DNA from: a virus
Lineage: Duplodnaviria > Heunggongvirae > Uroviricota > Caudoviricetes
Reading direction: 5' to 3' (one strand)
Virus record (IMG/VR): IMGVR_UViG_2778261514_000009
DNA length: 11,484 nt
The notes under the pieces were generated by a model. The model saw nothing but the letters and a program-made list of their open reading frames with translations, did not search any database and was not told the DNA's origin. This document shows, in pieces, positions 1 to 11,325 of the stretch (the stretch's first letter is position 1; each line of letters opens with the position of its first letter). The translations under genes and the position numbers were made by a program.

Positions 1-1218
1 ATGAACAAACTGAGCGATACCTTGCTAAGGAAACTTCATGGTAAGCCAGCGGAGAAAAACACGTTTTATAGTGATGGCGGAAACCTGAGCGTGAAATATT
101 TAACATCAGGGAAATTGACCTGGTATTTCACATACAGGGCCGGAACGGGAAGGGAGACACGACCCGAACGCATTAAGCTGGGAAGTTATCCTGATCTGAG
201 CCTGAAAGCAGCCAGGGAAAAAGCCGCACAGTGTCGCACATGGCTGGCTGAGGGGAAAAATCCACGTCATGAGATGAATTACACCGTACAGGAAGCGTTA
301 AAGCCCGTAACGGTTGGCGATGCGCTCACCTACTGGCTTGAGTATTACGTAAAGGAAAACCGCGTGGATTATATCGCCCTGAAAAGGCGACTTAATAATC
401 ACGTAATACAGCAGATTGGTGCTATGCCGCTGGATAAATGCGAGCTACGGCACTGGCTGGCCTGTTTTGACCAGGTGGCAAAGCGAACGCCTGTTACTGC
501 CGGATTCGTGCTACAGGCGTGCAAACAGGCGCTTAAGTTCTGCCGTAGGCGGCGCTATGCAATCAGCAACGTTCTGGACGATCTGAACGTGGCGGACGTT
601 GGGAAAAAACCGGATATAAGCGAACGTGTCTTAAGTAACAAAGAACTTGGCGAATTATTGCAGGCACTGGACAAAAAAATATTCTCCCCTTACTACGTCG
701 CGTTAATCCGCCTCCTGATTGTCTTCGGAGCCAGAACGGTAGAACTGAGGTTATCGGAGATCGGGGAGTGGGATTTTACGGAAATGCTATGGACCGTTCC
801 GAAGGAGCACAGCAAAACGAAGGTCGCAATATTCCGGCCCATACCGGAAGCGATCCTGCCGTTCGTCACGCAGCTGGTGGAGCAGAACAGGCACACGGGC
901 TTATTGCTGGGGGAAGTGAAACAGGAGGCCAGCGTATCGCAGTATGGAAGATTAGCGCACAGGAGGCTTAATCATCCTCACTGGTCACTACATGACATCC
1001 GGCGCACCTTTACAACGATGCTGAACGATTTAGGCGTGGATCCTCACGTCGTGGAGCAGCTTACAGGCCACCAGATGCCAGGAATGCAGCGAGTTTATAA
1101 TCATTCCCGTTATCTGGATGCTAAACGCAATGCGCTGGATATGTGGACGGAGCGGTTAGGGATACTGGCGGGAACACATGAAAACGTAACCACGCTACCA
1201 GTAGCCAGAAGAAAATAA
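1..1218 (+). CDS. int: Tyrosine recombinase, P4-type phage integrase (405 aa; ORF begins at window position 1)
   Basis: N-terminal arm-binding-like region (YSDGGNLSVKY...WYFTYR) and C-terminal catalytic region (HDIRRTF...LTGHQ...VYNHSRYLD) typical of P4-family integrases; followed by an AlpA gene as in P4-like and PICI elements. Confidence 0.9.
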   Translation: MNKLSDTLLRKLHGKPAEKNTFYSDGGNLSVKYLTSGKLTWYFTYRAGTGRETRPERIKLGSYPDLSLKAAREKAAQCRTWLAEGKNPRHEMNYTVQEALKPVTVGDALTYWLEYYVKENRVDYIALKRRLNNHVIQQIGAMPLDKCELRHWLACFDQVAKRTPVTAGFVLQACKQALKFCRRRRYAISNVLDDLNVADVGKKPDISERVLSNKELGELLQALDKKIFSPYYVALIRLLIVFGARTVELRLSEIGEWDFTEMLWTVPKEHSKTKVAIFRPIPEAILPFVTQLVEQNRHTGLLLGEVKQEASVSQYGRLAHRRLNHPHWSLHDIRRTFTTMLNDLGVDPHVVEQLTGHQMPGMQRVYNHSRYLDAKRNALDMWTERLGILAGTHENVTTLPVARRK

Positions 1219-1582: not shown

Positions 1583-1771
1583 GTGTTAAGCACTGATCGG
1601 TTTATACGTGAAAAAGAATGCGAAAAACTAACCGGCCTTAGCCGTACGTGTCGCTACCGCCTGGAAAAGGCCGGACAATTCCCATCACGTCGTAAACTTG
1701 GCGGTCGTTCCGTTGGCTGGTCTTTATCCGAGGTTCTGGCCTGGAAGGATAGCTGCAAGGCAGTTCATTAA
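1583..1771 (+). CDS. alpA: AlpA-family transcriptional regulator / excisionase-like HTH protein (62 aa, GTG start)
   Basis: Pattern TGLSRTCRYRLEKAGQFP...LGGRSVGWSLSEVLAW matches the AlpA (Phage_AlpA) family; SD AAGGGGG lies 6 nt upstream of GTG at 1583. Confidence 0.85.
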   Translation: MLSTDRFIREKECEKLTGLSRTCRYRLEKAGQFPSRRKLGGRSVGWSLSEVLAWKDSCKAVH

Positions 1772-2148: not shown

Positions 2149-2322
2149 TCAGTCTGGTTCAGTTCGTTGCCATACCTGCAATGAGCGCTTTTCCCTGTAC
2201 TCTTTAAGGAATTGCTCAAGGGCAAAAGCACATGGCGCGAATCTTTCTGATTCATGCTCTATCTTTCTGCGCCGTCTTTTCCGTGCCGGTGATAATGTTT
2301 TGGTCAATTCTTTATCGGTCAT
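2149..2322 (-). CDS. Small highly basic hypothetical protein (57 aa from ATG at 2322; alternative start 2337)
   Basis: ORF track 2149..2337(-); internal ATG has AGGA 8 nt upstream; contains RKRRRRK basic tract; lies 57 bp downstream of the RHH gene and upstream of the terminator. Confidence 0.35.
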   Translation of the reverse strand: MTDKELTKTLSPARKRRRRKIEHESERFAPCAFALEQFLKEYREKRSLQVWQRTEPD

Positions 2323-2379
2323 TGTGTTGTCCTGCATAGCAATGCGCCGTAATACCTCACACCACGGCGCTGATAGTGA

Positions 2380-2559
2380 TTATTCTGATTCTTTGGCCTT
2401 GCGGCGCTGGCGGCGTTTGATCTCGCCTTCAAGTGCCGAAACGATAAATTGCCCTGTACTTTCGCCATCTTCCTTTAAATTTTCTACAGCATCAGCTATT
2501 GCGTGTGGTACTCGAGCCTCAAGCTTTTTGGATTTTGCATTAACTGCTTTTGTTGCCAT
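2380..2559 (-). CDS. Ribbon-helix-helix (CopG/Arc-like) DNA-binding protein, 59 aa
   Basis: Internal ATG of track ORF 2380..2700(-) with SD GAGGAAA 6 nt upstream; sequence KKLEARVPHAIADAVENLKEDGESTGQFIVSALEGEIKRR fits the strand-helix-helix pattern; faces a divergent promoter/operator region. Confidence 0.5.
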   Translation of the reverse strand: MATKAVNAKSKKLEARVPHAIADAVENLKEDGESTGQFIVSALEGEIKRRQRRKAKESE

Positions 2560-2580
2560 ATCTGATTTCCTCGTTATTAG

Positions 2581-2662
2581 GTGGCTGACAGTATACACAC
2601 AAGAAAACGGAAAAACACTATTGACGTGGCTGACACCCGTTACTAATATAGTGGCTGACACC
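2581..2662. promoter_or_regulatory. Divergent promoter/operator region: sigma70-like TTGACG-17-TAATAT (2621-2649, + direction) overlapped by three direct repeats of GTGGCTGACA
   Basis: Repeats at 2581-2590, 2626-2635 and 2651-2660; the second overlaps the -35/spacer and the third sits at the predicted start site; located between the minus-strand RHH gene and the plus-strand operon. Confidence 0.45.
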
Positions 2663-2753
2663 TTTGTCAAGGTAATCGATGAAAAGACAAAGCCCCGCAA
2701 GTGTCGTTACCACTCGCAGGGCTTCTAACCAACAACGTAAACTAGGAGCCGTT

Positions 2754-2954
2754 ATGGTTGCTGTAAATCATATACCACACCTTGTACACACACAAACGGC
2801 CTTTGTGTGGCGTTTTCTGGCACTGAGTGCCGGAGAATCTCAAATCATCCACGTAACCGCCTGGACGGAACGCGAAGCGCGTAGCCGTTGCCCGTCCGGT
2901 TGTGTTGCTGTATTCGCCGCCCGTATTCGTCAGGAGGTGTGCCATGTGCAATAA
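2754..2954 (+). CDS. Hypothetical small protein (66 aa), first gene of the replication-module operon; possibly Icd-like
   Basis: Internal ATG of track ORF 2679..2954 with SD AGGAG 6 nt upstream; the Icd-like resemblance is from memory only and unverified. Confidence 0.45.
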   Translation: MVAVNHIPHLVHTQTAFVWRFLALSAGESQIIHVTAWTEREARSRCPSGCVAVFAARIRQEVCHVQ

Positions 2955-3183
2955 AACCACACCGGACGCAGCCGCCGCCGCGCTCACTACGCTAATGCAT
3001 GCGCTGATTGATATTTCTGTTATTGCTGACAGGGCGCATAAGCACGCCACCAATGAAACAGAATATGCCGGGGCTTTCGTTCCTCATTCGCTGGCGGTTA
3101 TGCAACTTAGTGCTGATATGGCGCTGAATGAGGCTAAAGCCATCCTGATTGCTGATTGTGAAAATGGGGGTGGTTATGCGTGA
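2944..3183 (+). CDS. Hypothetical small protein (79 aa)
   Basis: ATG at 2944 with SD AGGAGG 7 nt upstream; start overlaps the previous stop (translational coupling). Confidence 0.45.
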   Translation: MCNKTTPDAAAAALTTLMHALIDISVIADRAHKHATNETEYAGAFVPHSLAVMQLSADMALNEAKAILIADCENGGGYA

Positions 3184-3409
3184 TGATCGTTTTAATTCCC
3201 TGAAACAGGAATTTTCCGGCGTTCCTGATGATGCGGCTGATGCGCTTTCGTCAATGCCAGAGCTTATTAGAGCGGCTTTTTTCTTACTTTCCACGAGAGA
3301 ATATAAATCAACGGGGCTTGATGTACTGAATATCGCCGCCGATTATGCGGAATATGTGGCAGAGGCGCATTACAGAAGAAAATTTCCTGAGGATGTAAGC
3401 CATGCGTGA
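3176..3409 (+). CDS. Hypothetical small protein (77 aa)
   Basis: ATG at 3176 preceded by GGGGGTGG; overlaps the upstream stop at 3181-3183; the track's TTG start at 3149 is less likely. Confidence 0.45.
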   Translation: MRDDRFNSLKQEFSGVPDDAADALSSMPELIRAAFFLLSTREYKSTGLDVLNIAADYAEYVAEAHYRRKFPEDVSHA

Positions 3410-3635
3410 TATTTACCACGAAACAATAGACCGCGCATTTCTTGCACTTTCTCACAGTGAAAACATGCTGGAAATATTGCGCATATGGCTTGAAACACTT
3501 GGCGACAATGAACGCGACAAACAAAAATCAAGAATTGCCACGGCATTAATAACGCTTCTTGAGCCTGTAATAATGGAACTGCAAGAAATAGATCTATTGC
3601 ACGACAGATATAAAGAACAGCACACCGGAGAATAA
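3402..3635 (+). CDS. Hypothetical small protein (77 aa)
   Basis: ATG at 3402 with GAGGA upstream; overlaps the previous gene's 3' end by 8 nt. Confidence 0.5.
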   Translation: MRDIYHETIDRAFLALSHSENMLEILRIWLETLGDNERDKQKSRIATALITLLEPVIMELQEIDLLHDRYKEQHTGE

Positions 3636-3640
3636 AAATA

Positions 3641-3940
3641 ATGAAACTTAAATATTCTGGCTTAACTGCCAGTGGCAACACTCACCCTAAATTTACGCGC
3701 GGTGATATTTACCGCGACCAGTACGGCGGCACGGTAATGATTAAGGGCGTGGAAGAACGGCGCGTAACCTACCGCCGTGAAGGCTACGAATATGACTGCG
3801 TGATGCCTGTTTATCAGTTCCGGCGTGATTTTTCTCTGGTACAGGCAGCGCCCCGCAGTAAACCAACCAGCAGGGAGAAAGCACGCGCCAATATTCAGGA
3901 AATAAAAAAGATACTTAACGTATTCAGGGGTAAAAAATGA
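3641..3940 (+). CDS. Hypothetical protein (99 aa) immediately upstream of and overlapping the primase gene
   Basis: ATG at 3641 with GGAG upstream; its stop overlaps the primase start (ATGA at 3937-3940). Confidence 0.5.
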   Translation: MKLKYSGLTASGNTHPKFTRGDIYRDQYGGTVMIKGVEERRVTYRREGYEYDCVMPVYQFRRDFSLVQAAPRSKPTSREKARANIQEIKKILNVFRGKK

Positions 3941-5691
3941 AACTGGCACCGAACGTAAAACAGCAGTCACGCGGCATAAAACACAAAGAAACAGAAGTCA
4001 TTATTTTTGCGGGTAGTGATGCCTGGTCACACGCGAAACAATGGCAGGAACATGATGCGCGTATGGCCGGAGATAATGAGCCTCCTGTGTGGCTTGGGGA
4101 GCAGCAGCTATCCGAACTGGATAATCTGCAAATTGTGCCGGAAGGCCGAAAATCAGCACGCATATACAGGGCCGGATATCTTGCGCCAGTAATGATAAAG
4201 GCGATTGGCCAGAAGCTGGCGGCGGCAGGCGTACAGGATGCAAATTTTTACCCTGATGGTATGCACGGTCAGAAGGTGGAGAACTGGCGCGAATATCTGG
4301 CCCGTGAGCGCCAGAATCTTTCTGATGGTCTGGTCATTGAGCTTCCGGTAAAGCAAAAGGCGCAACTTTCGCAGATGGCGGACAGTGAGCGCGCGCAGCT
4401 GCTTGCCGATCGCTTTGATGGCGTTTGCGTACATCCTGAAAGTGAAATCGTTCACGTATGGCGCGGCGGGGTATGGTGTCCGGTCAGCACAATGGAACTT
4501 AGCCGCGAAATGGTGGCGATCTATTCAGAGCACAGGGCCACTTTCAGCAAGCGCGTAATCAATAACGCCGTGGAAGCGTTAAAAGTTATTGCCGAACCAA
4601 TGGGCGAGCCGTCCGGCGATTTGCTGCCGTTCGCCAATGGTGCGCTTGACCTGAAAACGGGGGAATTTTCCCCGCACACGCCGGAGAACTGGATCACCAC
4701 GCACAACGGCATTGAGTACACGCCACCAGCACCAGGGGAGAACATCCGCGATAACGCGCCAAACTTTCATAAATGGCTTGAGCACGCAGCCGGAAAAGAC
4801 CCGCGCAAGATGATGCGTATATGTGCCGCGCTGTACATGATTATGGCGAACCGGTACGACTGGCAGATGTTTATTGAGGCCACCGGAGATGGCGGGAGCG
4901 GTAAAAGTACATTCACGCACATAGCCAGCCTTCTGGCAGGGAAACAGAACACGGTAAGCGCTGAAATGACGTCGCTTGATGATGCTGGTGGACGTGCGCA
5001 GGTTGTCGGGAGTCGTCTTATCGTCCTGGCTGACCAGCCGAAATATACAGGCGAAGGAACGGGCATCAAGAAAATCACGGGCGGTGACCCCGTGGAAATT
5101 AACCCGAAATACGAAAAGCGTTTCACGGCTGTAATCAGGGCGGTGGTGCTGGCGACCAACAATAACCCGATGATATTCACCGAACGGGCCGGAGGTGTGG
5201 CACGTCGTCGCGTGATTTTCCGTTTCGACAATATCGTCAGTGAGGCCGACAAAGACAGGGAGCTACCGGAAAAGATCGCGGCTGAAATCCCTGTCATTAT
5301 CCGCCGATTGCTGGCGAACTTTACCGACCCTGAGAAGGCACGGGCTTTACTACTGGAACAGCGTGACGGTGATGAAGCTCTGGCAATAAAGCAACAGACG
5401 GATCCGGTTATTGAGTTTTGCCAGTTCCTGAATTTTCTGGAGGAAGCACGCGGCCTGATGATGGGCGGCGGTGGCGATTCAGTGAAGTACACGACCAGAA
5501 ACAGCCTTTACCGCGTCTATCTGGCGTTTATGGCGTACGCAGGCAGGAGCAAACCGCTAAACGTAAATGACTTTGGCAAGGCTATGAAGCCAGCCGCGAA
5601 AGTTTACGGACATGAATATATTACGCGGAAAGTTAAGGGAGTAACGCAGACTAACGCAATAACAACAGACGAGTGCGACGCGTTTTTATAA
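3937..5691 (+). CDS. pri: Replication initiation primase/helicase (D5_N plus SF3-type P-loop NTPase; P4-family primase C-terminal region), 584 aa
   Basis: Walker A GDGGSGKST, the downstream hydrophobic strand with acidic residue (LIVLADQP) and the characteristic ...VEINPKYEKRFTAVIRAVVLATNNNP...RRRVIFRF block; followed directly by an iteron region, as in PICI pri-rep/ori modules. Confidence 0.88.
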   Translation: MKLAPNVKQQSRGIKHKETEVIIFAGSDAWSHAKQWQEHDARMAGDNEPPVWLGEQQLSELDNLQIVPEGRKSARIYRAGYLAPVMIKAIGQKLAAAGVQDANFYPDGMHGQKVENWREYLARERQNLSDGLVIELPVKQKAQLSQMADSERAQLLADRFDGVCVHPESEIVHVWRGGVWCPVSTMELSREMVAIYSEHRATFSKRVINNAVEALKVIAEPMGEPSGDLLPFANGALDLKTGEFSPHTPENWITTHNGIEYTPPAPGENIRDNAPNFHKWLEHAAGKDPRKMMRICAALYMIMANRYDWQMFIEATGDGGSGKSTFTHIASLLAGKQNTVSAEMTSLDDAGGRAQVVGSRLIVLADQPKYTGEGTGIKKITGGDPVEINPKYEKRFTAVIRAVVLATNNNPMIFTERAGGVARRRVIFRFDNIVSEADKDRELPEKIAAEIPVIIRRLLANFTDPEKARALLLEQRDGDEALAIKQQTDPVIEFCQFLNFLEEARGLMMGGGGDSVKYTTRNSLYRVYLAFMAYAGRSKPLNVNDFGKAMKPAAKVYGHEYITRKVKGVTQTNAITTDECDAFL

Positions 5692-5979: not shown

Positions 5980-6258
5980 ATGCACACTTCAGGGAAATTT
6001 AATAAATCACTCAAAAAACGCAGAGACAGAACAGAACCGAAATATCGCGCGTTAGACATGACAGAGCACGCTTTAAAGGTGGCAATCAGAACGATAGACC
6101 GCCACGCGGGGGAAGGATACGCGAAAGCACATCCCGACCTGATAAGCGCATTCATGACCACGACGGCGGCAAATTTTGCCACGCTGACAGAGCGGGAGAT
6201 TGCCGAAGCGGAACAGGTAACAACAATCAACGTTAAAACCGGAGAGGTGGAATCATGA
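5980..6258 (+). CDS. Hypothetical protein (92 aa)
   Basis: ATG at 5980 with GAGGGGG upstream; stop overlaps the SSB start (ATGA at 6255); no family recognised. Confidence 0.45.
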   Translation: MHTSGKFNKSLKKRRDRTEPKYRALDMTEHALKVAIRTIDRHAGEGYAKAHPDLISAFMTTTAANFATLTEREIAEAEQVTTINVKTGEVES

Positions 6259-6665
6259 CAGCACAGATAGCCGCTTACGGGCGGCTGGTGGACGACCCGC
6301 AGGTAAAACAGACCAGCAAGGGCACACCGATGACGCTGGCGCGTATGGCGGTCCCCCTTCCGTGCAGCCAGGCAGATGACGGAACGGCGACGATGTGGTT
6401 ATCCGTCCTGGCATTTGGCAGACAGGCCGAAGCACTGGAAAGGCACCGCAAGGGTGAACTCCTGAGCGTGGCGGGTAACATGCAGATCAGCCAGTGGACT
6501 GGGCAGAACGGAGAAACGCGGCAGGGTTATCAGGTTATTGCAGACAGCGTAATCAGTGCCCGTGCGGCACGTCCTGGCGGGAACAGACGCAAAACCACAG
6601 GCACACAGGGTAATCAGCCACCAGCGGGAGGCGATGACCCTTACGGTGATGATATTCCGTTCTGA
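6255..6665 (+). CDS. ssb: Single-stranded DNA-binding protein (SSB homologue, 136 aa)
   Basis: OB-fold-like N-terminus, Gly/Pro/Gln-rich linker and C-terminal tail ...DDPYGDDIPF matching the conserved SSB acidic tip (E. coli SSB ends ...DFDDDIPF); SD GGAGAGGTGG. Confidence 0.85.
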   Translation: MTAQIAAYGRLVDDPQVKQTSKGTPMTLARMAVPLPCSQADDGTATMWLSVLAFGRQAEALERHRKGELLSVAGNMQISQWTGQNGETRQGYQVIADSVISARAARPGGNRRKTTGTQGNQPPAGGDDPYGDDIPF

Positions 6666-7550: not shown

Positions 7551-7757
7551 ATGGCTGAAGAGAAAAAAGGCGGTGTTTCGGTGTACATAAGCCCCGAAAT
7601 CGTGGAGGTGCTCAAGCAGCGCCACAAAAAAAACTATGAAGCTGGCGTTGCGGCTGGACTGGATCCGCTGATGACGCCGGAGCCGTCGATAGGTTCACTT
7701 GTGCGATCTTATTTACTTGCGGCGCTTGGGATGCACAAAAATTATGGGGGCGAATAA
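7551..7757 (+). CDS. Hypothetical small protein (68 aa) coupled to the major capsid gene
   Basis: ATG 7551 with GAGGAA upstream (the track's 7518 start lacks an SD); its stop overlaps the capsid gene start (TAATG). Confidence 0.5.
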   Translation: MAEEKKGGVSVYISPEIVEVLKQRHKKNYEAGVAAGLDPLMTPEPSIGSLVRSYLLAALGMHKNYGGE

Positions 7758-8812
7758 TGGCAGTCAAAGCAATAGCACTTAACACACACCAGCTTTTCGC
7801 GTACCTGAATCGCGAGGATATTGCGGAATTTAAATTTAGTCCGCTGTTTACCGCGCTGTTTTTCCCGAACGTGGCGACATTCAACACGCAGGACATCATG
7901 TTAGATAACCTGGATATTGAAGAAGTCACTATGTCGGCGTTTTGTTCGCCTATGGTTGGCAGCCAGGTTCAGCGCGATAAAGGGTACGAAACCAGCATTA
8001 TCCGCCCTGGCTACATGAAGCCAAAACACGAAATCGATCCATTAAAAACAATAATGCGCATGGCTGGAGAAGATCCGGCACAGCTTAACGATCCTACCTA
8101 CCGCCGTATGCGCCTGATTACTGGCAACATGCGCCGCCAGATAAATGCCATTAAGGCACGCGTTGAATGGCTGGCGGTGAATGCGGTAACGACCGGAAAA
8201 AACATCATTGAGGGCGAAGGCATAGAACGCTATGAAATCGACTGGAAGATACCGGAAAAAAACATCATAGAGCAGGCCGACGGTAAAAAATGGTCTGAGC
8301 AGGATAAAGACATACACGACCCAATATATGACATTGAACTATACGCAGATCAGGCAGGTTGCCCCGCCAACGTCATGATTATGGGCGTTGATGTATGGCG
8401 CATGTTACGCAGCTTTAAAAAATTCCGTGAACTGTACGATCTCTCCCGTGGTTCAGAATCCGCCGCAGAGCTGGCATGTAAAAACCTGGGCGAAGTGGTG
8501 AGCTTTAAAGGCTATCTTGGTGATCTGGCCCTTATCGTCTATTCCGGCAAATACACTGACAGCGACGGCACAGAAAAATATTTCCTTGAGCCTGATTTGC
8601 TTGTCCTGGGCAACACCAACAATAAAGGGCTGGTGGCCTATGGTGCGATTATGGATCAGGACGCAGTAAGAACGGGGGCAACGCAAAACATGTACTACCC
8701 GAAAAACTGGATTGAGGACGGAGATCCGGCGATTGAGTACGTGCAGACGCACAGCGCACCGCAGCCGGTTCCGGCAGATATTCGCAAATTTGTTACTGTC
8801 AAAATTGCTTAA
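7757..8812 (+). CDS. Major capsid protein, lambda gpE family (351 aa)
   Basis: Alignable along its length with lambda gpE as recalled: FKFSPLF, PGYMKPKHEIDP, EDPAQLNDPTYRRMR, WSEQDKDIHDP..DIELYA, VSFKGYLGDLALIVYSGKY, LVLGNTNNKGLVAYGAIMD, YYPKNWIEDGDPAIEY..HSAP. Confidence 0.9.
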   Translation: MAVKAIALNTHQLFAYLNREDIAEFKFSPLFTALFFPNVATFNTQDIMLDNLDIEEVTMSAFCSPMVGSQVQRDKGYETSIIRPGYMKPKHEIDPLKTIMRMAGEDPAQLNDPTYRRMRLITGNMRRQINAIKARVEWLAVNAVTTGKNIIEGEGIERYEIDWKIPEKNIIEQADGKKWSEQDKDIHDPIYDIELYADQAGCPANVMIMGVDVWRMLRSFKKFRELYDLSRGSESAAELACKNLGEVVSFKGYLGDLALIVYSGKYTDSDGTEKYFLEPDLLVLGNTNNKGLVAYGAIMDQDAVRTGATQNMYYPKNWIEDGDPAIEYVQTHSAPQPVPADIRKFVTVKIA

Positions 8813-9171: not shown

Positions 9172-9585
9172 ATGGCAACGAATGAAAGCATCATGACGCT
9201 ACCGCTGGCGAGTAAATTTAAAGCCGAAGCGCGGGCAATGGCTGACAGAGGTTTATCAACCTATGAGGCCGTATATCAACTAAACAAACTGGAAGAGCAG
9301 GACAAGCCGCGCGCTGATGCGATTATGGCGCTTCATGAGCATAAAGACTATCAGCCGCTGTTACGTGCAATGGCAAACGTGCCATGTATTAGCGTCGATA
9401 ATGCTCGTGAAATCCTGAACATGACCATAGAGCAGGAGCGCCCAAAGGTTGCACCAGAGCTTACCGCAGCCTTTGAAAACTTTATGGACATGCACAGCCC
9501 GCAAGCCGTATCAGCTGGCATGGCATACGATGGCAGAAACCAGGGCGATGACGGCGACATCGATCGCATACTGAAAACCATCTGA
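9172..9585 (+). CDS. Hypothetical protein (137 aa), last gene of the capsid operon
   Basis: SD AGGGGGAA 4 nt upstream; followed by a terminator; no family recognised. Confidence 0.5.
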   Translation: MATNESIMTLPLASKFKAEARAMADRGLSTYEAVYQLNKLEEQDKPRADAIMALHEHKDYQPLLRAMANVPCISVDNAREILNMTIEQERPKVAPELTAAFENFMDMHSPQAVSAGMAYDGRNQGDDGDIDRILKTI

Positions 9586-9791: not shown

Positions 9792-10334
9792 ATGAAATCG
9801 CACCTGATGAACAAAAAAAACATGGCGAAAAGCTGCCGTGTAAGTGCGACAGCGTTCGACAAGTGGGGAGTGACTCCCGTTGAACGTAAAGGCCGTGAGG
9901 CGTTTTACGATGTTGCCAGCGTGATAGACAATAGGGTTAACAATGCAATTAGCCAGCTTACAAACGACAAAGGCGATATTGATGATGATGAACTCTTACG
10001 AGTCAGGATCAGATTACTGACAGCACAGGCGGAGGCGCAGGAACTTAAAAACGAGCGCGATCGCGGTGACGTGATTGATACTGAGTTTTGCCTGTACGCG
10101 CTTTCAAAGCTGGCGAGTCAGATTTCATCAATCATGGACAGCCTCCCGCTTACTATGCAAAGGAGCTTCCCACAGATTACCCACGCCATGCTGGATAGGC
10201 TTAAAAGGGAAGTGGTTAAAGCCTGTAATGCCAGTGCCAGAGTTGCCGACAACCTCCCACAGATACTGGCTGATTACTTGAAAGAAACAACCGGAAACGT
10301 ACCGGAAAAGTTGCTACAGAAGAAAGGCGAGTAA
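9792..10334 (+). CDS. terS: Terminase small subunit, lambda Nu1 family (180 aa; start possibly at 9807)
   Basis: C-terminal two-thirds aligns with lambda Nu1 as recalled (RLLTAQAEAQELKNERD / LTRAQADAQELKNARD; FCLYALSKLASQISSIMDSLPL / FCTFVLSRIAGEIASILDGLPL; LKREVVKACN / LKRDIIKAMN); N-terminus NKKN... parallels Nu1 MEVNKKQ... HTH region; lies directly downstream of cos as in lambda. Confidence 0.8.
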   Translation: MKSHLMNKKNMAKSCRVSATAFDKWGVTPVERKGREAFYDVASVIDNRVNNAISQLTNDKGDIDDDELLRVRIRLLTAQAEAQELKNERDRGDVIDTEFCLYALSKLASQISSIMDSLPLTMQRSFPQITHAMLDRLKREVVKACNASARVADNLPQILADYLKETTGNVPEKLLQKKGE

Positions 10335-10339
10335 CAGAC

Positions 10340-10556
10340 GCGCAATTATTGAACAAAACTGAGAAACGACATGAAAGCGTCATAAATCGCCATTTTAGAT
10401 GATTACCGTGTCGTTTCTTTTTATTGTGTATCTATTTAAAAACAAATAGTTATGTTCGAGAAGTACCGACATGCTTTTTCCAGAAAAATTTTCATAAACA
10501 GATAAAAACCGCGAGGTCGCCGCCCCGTAACGGGCCATAATTCCAGGAAGGACCCG
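10340..10556 (-). other. Second, inverted cos module (copy B): cosQ-like, cosN (GGGCGGCGACCT on minus strand at 10514-10525) and a lambda-like cosB with I1-like and R-like elements
   Basis: Reverse complement of 10500-10556 reads CGGGTCCTTCCTGGAATTATGGCCCGTTACGGGGCGGCGACCTCGCGGTTTTTATCTGTTTATGAAAATTTTTCTGG, close to copy A and to the lambda left end; further along, CGAACATAACTATTTGTTTTTAAATA resembles the lambda I1 region; inverted CGTTTCT elements at 10363-10372 and 10409-10418. Confidence 0.6.
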
Positions 10557-10589
10557 ACGACACCAGACTATCAGAGCGATGGGGGCACA

Positions 10590-10877
10590 ATGACAGAAGC
10601 CGAACTACTGGGATTAATCCGCCGCGTTACCGGAATCAGCCAGCAGCATGACGAACAGGCCACGCAGCCGGACAGCGTGACCGCCGAAAATTACGCGCGT
10701 GTGGTTGCTGAGGTGATGCGCCGTGATGGTATCCAGCTTAATGATGTGGATATGCGCAACATAGGATCCGCGTTCTTGAAATGCTGGCCTACAATCGCCG
10801 CGTGGCACTGTATCGGGAAACGGAGAAAATTACGTACCACTGGAAGAAGCCGGAGCGGTTACGGCGTTAACGAGTAG
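10590..10877 (+). CDS. Hypothetical protein (95 aa), weakly supported
   Basis: ORF with a G-rich SD-like sequence upstream; no family recognised; could be non-coding. Confidence 0.3.
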   Translation: MTEAELLGLIRRVTGISQQHDEQATQPDSVTAENYARVVAEVMRRDGIQLNDVDMRNIGSAFLKCWPTIAAWHCIGKRRKLRTTGRSRSGYGVNE

Positions 10878-10886
10878 CGACATACC

Positions 10887-10921
10887 GTGACGGAGAGTGA
10901 CAACCAGTGACACGCCGTGAC
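10887..10921. repeat. Four GTGAC motifs at exact 10-bp phasing; candidate arm-type recombinase or RDF binding sites near the island right end
   Basis: cGTGACggag aGTGACaacc aGTGACacgc cGTGACaaaa; followed by GGTCAT direct and inverted repeats (11013-11041) and a GGTGTAGTCA direct repeat (about 11240-11261). Confidence 0.35.
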
Positions 10922-11325
10922 AAAAGACGGTTTAACCGTTAATTAAAAATTGACGGGATTTTGTGCTTTCCGGACGACGTGACCAACGTCATTTTTTAGC
11001 GAAAAGTTCTGATTAAGGTCATTGTCTGAATGGTCATAATGACCACTCCTACAAAACAGGTAAAGCCCACCAGCCTGATTAACAGTTAACCGGAAAAAAA
11101 TCCGGTAGCCCCGTTATGGGGATCCCCATATCAACATTAACGCCCCTCATGAATTAGCGCGCTTCCCCCTGGAAAGATGACCCGCCTGTATATTTCTTGT
11201 GTCTATTTGTTCCACGTTGTTTCATACAGTGCACCGAACGGTGTAGTCACTGGTGTAGTCATTTTGCGATTTATGGCACTTTTTGTAGTGAAAATTATTT
11301 AATTAAATCAATGCGTTAAGTGAAA

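Follow-up and report, generated by a model that had tools for sequence, protein, structure and literature searches.

A candidate YlcI/YnfO-family repressor with matched operators at the replication promoter of an Escherichia coli phage satellite

Introduction

Small repressors and an antisense RNA occur together at the immI region of phage P22, which has the ribbon-helix-helix (RHH) repressors Mnt and Arc, the promoters Pant and Pmnt, and the sar antisense RNA. The c4 RNA of phage P1 and the CI RNA of the satellite P4 are trans-acting, and each derives by processing from the strand that also encodes its target. The phage-inducible chromosomal islands (PICIs) of Gram-positive bacteria are silenced by a master repressor that helper phages inactivate (PMC6092414). 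For Gram-negative PICIs, the published view is that a global repressor "is unclear" and that induction proceeds via the activator AlpA, a difference between the groups that has been called a mystery (PMC6092414). Here, we analyze a stretch of 11,484 nucleotides (IMG/VR record IMGVR_UViG_2778261514_000009; hereafter, the window), which is a capsid-forming PICI-type satellite of E. coli. Three direct repeats lie before its replication operon, and it is likely that they are the operators of a divergently encoded RHH protein of the YlcI/YnfO family (2559 to 2380, minus strand). The binding, repression, autoregulation, and transcription start sites proposed below are drawn from sequence comparison.

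Three repeats over two predicted divergent promoters

A search of the whole window found three exact copies of GTGGCTGACA, all on the plus strand, at 2581-2590, 2626-2635, and 2651-2660. The start-to-start distances are 45 bp and then 25 bp, exactly as the first-pass annotation of this DNA had described. Copies 2 and 3 lengthen to GTGGCTGACACC and sit inside a 21-nt repeat, ACTAnTnnnGTGGCTGACACC, which pairs 2617-2637 with 2642-2662. When one mismatch is allowed, the window holds four matches, compared with 0.54 expected, and four were reached by one of 200 shuffles. The fourth match, ATGGCTGACA at 9238, is within chance expectation, and we rejected it as a fourth operator.

We refer to the three repeats as O1 (2580-2591, GGTGGCTGACAG), O2 (2626-2637, GTGGCTGACACC), and O3 (2651-2662, GTGGCTGACACC), none of which is assigned a strand. 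The window-class site can also be written as GTGGCTGACAC, and the proposed YlcI target as GGTGGCTGACACC. O2 and O3 lie on the predicted rightward promoter P_R (2621-2649, plus strand), which consists of TTGACG (2621-2626), a 17-bp spacer, and TAATAT (2644-2649), with a predicted start at ~2656-2657. O2 begins at the final base of the -35 element and occupies the spacer, and O3 begins 2 bp past the -10 element and spans the predicted start site. The promoter had been described as pointing into the replication operon, and indeed an icd-like gene, DUF4222, and a D5-type primase gene lie downstream on the plus strand.

The first repeat sits on a different promoter. O1 overlaps the predicted ylcI start site (~2583) and the last base of a candidate -10 element, TATACT (2590-2595, minus strand), which is 22 bp upstream of the ylcI start codon (2559) and would belong to a leftward promoter, P_L. 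As read from the sequence, CAGTATAC is kept beside O1 across site classes, which supports the P_L -10 element. The right flank of O1 is off-pattern, with CAG in place of CAC. Thus, the earlier statement that the repeats overlap the -35/spacer and start site of the rightward promoter is correct for copies 2 and 3, while copy 1 lies on the leftward ylcI promoter. The placement of O1 on the start of that promoter suggests autoregulation.

Candidate operator sequences change in step with YlcI

We oriented and compared five E. coli relatives and 23 loci of other genera, and then extended the set to ~35 related loci in ~18 specificity classes, of which eight were fetched afterwards as a check. The loci come from at least 10 genera (Escherichia, Xenorhabdus, Pectobacterium, Dryocola, Yokenella, Citrobacter, Cedecea, Edwardsiella, Klebsiella, Serratia, and Yersinia) and carry L numbers below where they must be told apart. 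Offsets from the ylcI start codon are almost invariant: nearly all loci have a class-specific O1 copy at +24, TTGAnn as the -35 element at +64, and O2 directly after it at +69. Where O1 is recognizable, the O1-O2 spacing is 44-47 bp (45 bp in most). The O2-O3 spacing is bimodal, either 21-25 bp or 34-36 bp, and the two distance groups, about one helical turn apart, hint at a face-of-helix constraint. O3 is direct or inverted depending on the class; of the five loci in the 34-36-bp group, four have it inverted. Inversion in several classes is expected of a symmetric dimer on a near-palindromic site.

The sites share the form (G)GTG-N5-CAC(C), in which N5 varies among locus groups in step with the N-terminal strand of YlcI. 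A KKLE or RKLE strand goes with GCTGA in the window, in six Xenorhabdus species, and in Pectobacterium polonicum, with the remaining spacer diverged in the latter two genera. Likewise, QT(V/L)A goes with TT(C/T)AA (in L002, QTVA with GTGTTCAACAC), Q(A/S)LK with G(G/A)CCA (in L003, QALK with GTGGGCCACAC), QMTT with TATTT, (Q/R)QKT with (C/G)(A/G)AGT, and QQLN with CGATT. In a Mantel test over 21 loci, core distances were correlated with those of the four strand residues (r = 0.74, p = 1e-4). A non-redundant set still gave a correlation (r = 0.46, p = 4e-4), and there the comparison of the core with control spacer DNA gave r = -0.03.

For the follow-up set, we chose eight unseen strand classes by their protein sequences only and retrieved the DNA after that choice. 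All eight carry a core of their own at the three expected positions: KRFD has GTGTCCGACA, KRID has GTGTCC(G/C)ACA, TQIA has GTGGTTAGCAC, LQVS has GTGGTGTTCAC, QKVQ has GTGGAGG/TCCAC, QKIH has GTGGAACAC, QSVT has GTGTAAGACAC, and KKMQ has GTGGAGCACAC. The QKVQ and KKMQ classes share K12 and Q14, differ at residues 11 and 13, and have a common core, GAGnA. A scan of protein columns against the O2 core placed residue 14 (r = 0.72) and residue 12 (r = 0.58) above all helix columns.

Mosaic loci point the same way. L039 carries a KKLE/GTGGCTGACA cassette before a different hairpin and icd-like variant, and L002, L004, and L005 carry other cassettes before an icd-like gene nearly identical to that of the window; thus, ylcI and the operators travel as a single unit. 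Altogether, the retained positions and the co-variation with the neighboring RHH protein bear out the description of these repeats as operator architecture, as far as comparison of loci can establish it.

Two loci have rearranged sites. At +24, L005 has the O1 GTGGTGTTCAG, which is of the LQVS class (as in L033), and its O2 and O3, GTGCAAGTCAC, are of its own QQKT class; this locus seems to have recombined inside the spacer, which leaves it with an autoregulatory site that is not cognate. In L015 (Xenorhabdus japonica), a single hybrid site, GGTGGCTGGCACC, lies upstream of ylcI and there is no promoter, which looks like an O1-O3 deletion by direct-repeat recombination.

Fold and distribution of YlcI

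YlcI of the window is a 59-aa protein (2380-2559 on the minus strand, stop codon included) and the proposed repressor. It matches the YlcI/YnfO profile NF041551 with 60.6 bits (cutoff 30) over residues 9-50, covering all 42 profile positions. An alignment-based AlphaFold2 (AF2) model predicts a strand-helix-helix arrangement of ~45-50 residues, in agreement with an RHH fold of the MetJ/Arc/CopG kind. A single-sequence AF2 prediction gave two long helices (predicted local distance difference test score 74) and was uninformative. Residues 13, 15, and 17 are mostly hydrophobic and R16 is invariant; the association of the site core with residues 14 and 12 indirectly points to outward-facing strand residues, as in the base contacts of RHH proteins.

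A protein search returned 88 members of the YlcI family. Of 5,426 complete E. coli genomes, 144 contain the ylcI/operator allele of the window and 1,218 contain the icd-like/antisense region (see below). We found nothing in the PDB by sequence search with the YlcI profile and no Pfam match, Arc included (both at E <= 10), and tblastn against 50,697 phage records gave no YlcI homologue. Literature searches on YlcI/YnfO, on Icd-like proteins with antisense RNA, and on PICIs with small RNAs found no functional study of YlcI, the sites, or the RNA.

Counterevidence and alternative explanations

Several observations weigh against YlcI as the repressor that binds these sites. The AF2 model is a monomer and does not contain the dimeric ribbon; in it, residues 3-7 fold back onto residues 10-13 and probably stand in for the partner strand. 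The -35 element of P_L is poor. P_R is the sole sigma-70-like match at 9/12 within 2200-3100, but shuffles give a mean of 0.9 matches for the one observed, so the call rests on position and conservation, including TTGA(C/A/G)(G/A) at a fixed offset in related loci, and not on the scan. Among the loci compared, the O1 of L005 belongs to another class, L004 and L028, which encode 65-67-aa variants, have sites of different length, and L023 and L024 do not show a clear site triplet. Related O157 islands that do not carry the ylcI cassette have been reported as AlpA-inducible, so the module is not indispensable for this type of island. Finally, protein and site are tightly linked, so shared descent alone would give some co-variation; this caveat is weakened, though still present, given the results of the non-redundant test, the comparison with control DNA, and the mosaic loci.

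The repeats could instead be operators for another protein, either linked to the cassette or supplied by the helper, such as the product of orf62, which follows ylcI in the window, or a helper-phage regulator. Linkage cannot fully separate YlcI from constant companions in the cassette. However, loci with the same operators differ in what lies downstream of ylcI, where L002 has three small genes and L025 and the Xenorhabdus loci have something else, and the association with the site core peaks at the predicted DNA-facing strand residues of YlcI itself. The phage records searched contain no YlcI homologue, which argues against a helper-encoded relative and is still compatible with an unrelated phage protein. 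We regard a binder other than YlcI as unlikely.

The first-pass annotation had listed AlpA, along with the RHH protein and helper-phage extracts, for footprinting on the repeats. As AlpA sites, the repeats would serve to turn on the replication operon. Direct repeats are frequent targets of AlpA/Xis-type proteins. AlpA is needed for induction of related islands, where it activates transcription (PMC6092414). The comparison does not favor this candidate, as AlpA alleles do not follow the site classes: one AlpA allele occurs with three operator classes (L002, L003, and L005), and an O157 island whose cassette and repeats both differ encodes exactly the AlpA of the window. Sites on the -35/spacer and +1 of a near-consensus promoter also suit repression, not activation. 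AlpA binding at the repeats is thus very improbable.

It is similarly hard to sustain that the repeats are origin iterons for the primase or another initiator, even though three direct repeats stand beside an A-rich stretch upstream of replication genes. In the window the repeats accompany a D5-type primase, and in L001 identical repeats accompany a RepA-family helicase, so they do not co-vary with the initiator and follow YlcI instead. O3 is inverted in several classes, and the sites are locked to the promoter hexamers at fixed offsets. In addition, the origin of Gram-positive PICIs lies after the pri-rep genes, and EcCICFT073 has been described with the same replicon organization (PMC6092414). 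The least probable explanation is functionless chance or mutational duplication: the 21-nt similarity could be a local duplication, but the shuffle counts given above and a triplet that is unchanged from E. coli to Xenorhabdus while the spacer diverges, with other classes having their own triplet at the same positions, leave it next to no room.

A proposed mechanism of repression and its relief

If the repeats are YlcI operators, one YlcI dimer would bind each (G)GTG-N5-CAC(C) site. Specificity for the variable central 5 bp would come from strand residues 12 and 14, and the grip on the constant GTG/CAC flanks from invariant residues, namely R16 and, in the N-terminal arm, N7, K9, and S10. YlcI on O2 (-35/spacer) and O3 (start site) would shut P_R and keep the icd-like gene, DUF4222, and the primase gene silent. 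O1 would be the weaker site, as its right flank shares bases with the -10 element, and YlcI bound there would limit its own synthesis from P_L at higher repressor levels. A predicted ~80-nt antisense RNA, described below, may serve as a second lock by base-pairing to leaky P_R transcripts at their ribosome-binding site and start codon; strong P_R transcription through the antisense promoter could in turn silence this RNA.

The repeats had been proposed as the likely induction switch of the island. The operator layout at the replication-operon promoter supports one part of that proposal, but the induction role does not follow from it: in related islands, induction is reported to run via helper-activated alpA, located upstream (PMC6092414; bioRxiv 10.1101/2022.09.08.507074). 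The repeats are better described as a point of repression or immunity than as an induction switch, and we hold that they are where induction is sensed with much lower confidence than that they are operators. The alpA gene is upstream of P_R and has the same orientation, so read-through from helper-activated alpA, antisense across ylcI, is a candidate for relief of repression. An anti-repressor is another candidate.

In L032, L033, L034, and L040, the interval from alpA to ylcI contains genes that resemble AntA, Bro-N, or ORF6N antirepressors and share the orientation of alpA; AntA/Bro-type genes as another route of relief are a lead only. In L033, a BrnT/BrnA pair and TumE flank ylcI.

We tentatively extend this model to enterobacterial PICIs and capsid-forming PICIs in general. 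It is possible, though doubtful as a whole, that they carry a true RHH master repressor in an exchangeable cassette, of the YlcI type in the window and of the HicB/Arc type in O157 islands, with matched operators and an antisense backup, that the alleles mark heteroimmune satellite lineages that do not repress one another, and that induction must overcome the repressor, whether through alpA-driven read-through or through an anti-repressor from the helper or the satellite.

A predicted antisense RNA over the icd-like gene

The icd-like gene (2754-2954, plus strand), which opens the rightward operon, matches NCBIfam NF033153 with 64.6 bits and is annotated as such by RefSeq in the identical sequence of L001. 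Its Shine-Dalgarno sequence, AGGAG, is at 2744-2748. Opposite the start of this gene, we predict a cis-antisense RNA of ~80 nt on the minus strand (2680-2760, running from ~2760 to 2680, with predicted ends), which would cover the icd-like ribosome-binding site and start codon. Its structure comprises a 5' stem-loop with an anti-Shine-Dalgarno sequence in the loop, an outer helix with an anti-start codon, an invariant GGUUAGA, a terminator, and a U-run.

The terminator hairpin (2725 to 2689) scores as a terminator on the minus strand only, and the minus-strand fold is the more stable in all 31 loci (mean -23.3 vs -17.5 kcal/mol). Aligned on the minus strand over the stretch between icd ATG+6 and the T-run, the loci have 96.3% of cells in pairs; compensatory change is seen at 14 of the 20 pairs, and none of 500 shuffles reached these values. 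The same alignment has 85 G.U cells, which pair on the minus strand only, compared with two A.C cells. We also considered the hairpin at 2689-2725 as a plus-strand attenuator and rejected it, given the weaker plus fold in 31 of 31 loci and the C.A mismatches where the minus strand has G.U.

A candidate promoter for the antisense RNA lies at 2767-2795 on the minus strand, within icd-like codons 5-14: TTGTGT (2795 to 2790), a 17-bp spacer, and TATGAT (2772 to 2767). In nearly all loci, a minus-strand TAnnnT ends at icd ATG+13 (or +7), despite the differing amino acids encoded there (QH, QS, HD, HS, NH, and KF), and in many of them (C/T)TGA(A/T)A lies 17 bp upstream of it. Rfam searches gave no credible family at E <= 1 for the window or at E <= 10 for 2640-2820, C4 (RF01695) being unmatched; weak matches to sR1, rnk_pseudo, and ctRNA_p42d fell far under the gathering scores.

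An alternative RHH cassette in O157:H7 islands

The island L038, from E. coli O157:H7 ATCC 35150 (NZ_CP038405.1), is near-identical to the window up to ~2378 and again from ~2682, with the DNA in between replaced. The match before ~2378 is broken by a gap of ~100 bp and a short divergent stretch. The replacement contains an unannotated 63-aa minus-strand open reading frame (ORF) at 3246-3437 with HicB/Arc-like RHH features, which has 54 homologues, mostly named HicB-family antitoxin. GTGGTCACC occurs there twice, around TTGACA-18-TAGCCT. Like YlcI, this cassette occupies the slot from the DNA downstream of alpA to the antisense terminator and has a minus-strand RHH gene and repeated sites; unlike YlcI, it belongs to an unrelated RHH family and has a different site sequence. 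By sequence comparison, the slot before the replication operon is held by alternative RHH cassettes.

Gene content of the satellite

The assignment of the window to the capsid-forming PICIs reflects its domain content. Integrase, Phage_AlpA, D5_N/DUF5906/Pox_D5, SSB, and Phage_cap_E were all detected. The integrase gene (int) is at 1-1218 on the plus strand, followed by alpA (1583-1771, plus strand; 62 aa; Pfam PF05930, 5e-17), whose product is an activator known from related islands. The single-stranded DNA-binding protein (SSB) gene is at 6255-6665 and the major capsid protein gene at 7757-8812. DNA near-identical to the window adjoins tqsA in E. coli ESDR8 (L001). This closest E. coli relative has ISEc20 and an IS21-family element in its rightward operon (9830-11026 and 12234-14541), and the ESDR8 copy of the island is probably defective.

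The rightward operon from P_R (2754-5691, plus strand) comprises the icd-like gene, small ORFs, DUF4222 (3641-3940, plus strand), and the D5-type primase gene (3937-5691, plus strand), and its ORFs overlap or stack on the single strand. Within 2754-5691, terminator-like patterns on the plus strand are limited to two weak matches, at 2789-2809 (three G-C pairs) and 4296-4315 (six pairs). The former is a hairpin of CACACAAACGGCCTTTGTGTG and GCGTTTTCTG, 35 nt into the icd-like gene and overlapping the antisense -35 element. It is missing from other icd-like variants and is probably due to chance.

Another short hairpin, CACCTTG...CAAGGTG at 2660-2674, shares bases with the right flank of O3 and begins within a few bases of where P_R transcripts are predicted to start. 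Its position is shared by L003, L010, L025, L029, L030, L034, L036, and L037. The hairpin is weak in the window (-3.3 kcal/mol) and as strong as -11.7 kcal/mol in several relatives, and it could be a 5' stabilizing stem-loop. In L002 and L016, the 3' arm of a hairpin of this type looks like a fourth operator.

On the leftward side, ylcI is followed by orf62 (2149-2337, minus strand), whose product shares 45% amino acid identity (E 8e-15) with WP_000182306.1, an annotated minus-strand gene of L002; a family search with orf62 gave no match. A terminator-like hairpin from 2071 to 2048 on the minus strand (10 pairs, six of them G-C, with the tail TTCTTTGCCT; 2038-2071 including the T-run), identified as a pattern match alone, would close a leftward ylcI-orf62 unit.

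An antisense open reading frame across ylcI

On the plus strand, a 299-aa ORF (1829-2728) runs antisense through orf62, ylcI, and the entire operator region. Most related loci are likewise open in the corresponding frame, which reaches 937 codons in L033, and in O157 RefSeq annotates a 247-aa homologue as a "hypothetical protein" (WP_001304194.1). We rejected both as real genes: the former is antisense to ylcI and to orf62, which is itself conserved as a protein (the 45% identity above), and the latter is antisense to the conserved HicB-like RHH gene. The 299-aa translation resembles antisense nonsense, and gene callers often predict a gene in this frame. Both are probably shadow ORFs, and we flag the RefSeq calls across ylcI (299 aa, window) and the O157 RHH gene (247 aa) as shadow-like.

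Significance and comparison with known systems

If a repressor-operator module does stand at the head of the replication operon, the question of the Gram-negative PICI repressor becomes open to simple tests, and a true master repressor would revise the model in which AlpA acts as activator only. The module occurs in many Enterobacterales. Its ~18 natural protein/operator pairs, whose differences are concentrated in two strand residues and five base pairs, are a data set for an RHH recognition code, and the YlcI allele series could supply orthogonal repressor-operator pairs.

In function, the module is like immI of P22, although it belongs neither to that system nor to immI of P1. In P22, and as proposed for the window, an operon is controlled by a small RHH repressor encoded divergently from it, operators lie over back-to-back promoters, and a short cis-antisense RNA from inside the operon is directed against the ribosome-binding site of its first gene. 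The strand patterns are also alike, with K12-x-E14-x-R16 in YlcI and Q9-x-N11-x-R13 in Arc. Unlike P22, the window has one repressor and not two, with no detectable Arc/Mnt homology (Pfam, E <= 10), and three separate 11-13-bp sites instead of the 17-21-bp tetramer-bound operators of P22. Its operon runs from the icd-like gene to a primase gene and not to an antirepressor gene, and the element is a phage satellite. The immI region of P1 (c4 RNA, icd, ant) and the CI RNA of P4 (RF01695) resemble the arrangement proposed for the window in that the operon begins with an icd-type gene and its translation is blocked by a small antisense RNA, and P4 is also a satellite. However, the RNA in the window lies on the opposite strand, is predicted to act in cis, and has no C4 match, and P1 and P4 are not known to have an RHH-operator layer at the corresponding promoter.

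Like the Stl/Rpr repressors of Staphylococcus aureus pathogenicity islands (SaPIs) and other Gram-positive PICIs, YlcI is divergent from a replication operon (xis/replication in the Stl/Rpr case; PMC6092414) and has many alleles. Unlike Stl, YlcI is a 59-aa RHH protein, for which Stl homology was neither detected nor expected. The layouts also differ: int (1-1218, plus strand) is opposite to ylcI, whereas Stl is co-directional with int (PMC6092414). Among other RHH regulators, those of plasmids and toxin-antitoxin systems and the like (CopG, omega, ParD, TacA, and the RHH domain of PutA) differ from YlcI, which has no toxin partner or partition function nearby, and the GTG-N5-CAC(C) form with three sites on two divergent promoters is specific to the YlcI family in this comparison. 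Altogether, the mechanism is of a classical kind; what is new is the proposed role of the YlcI family, the large set of matched protein and operator alleles, the satellite setting, and the predicted antisense RNA.

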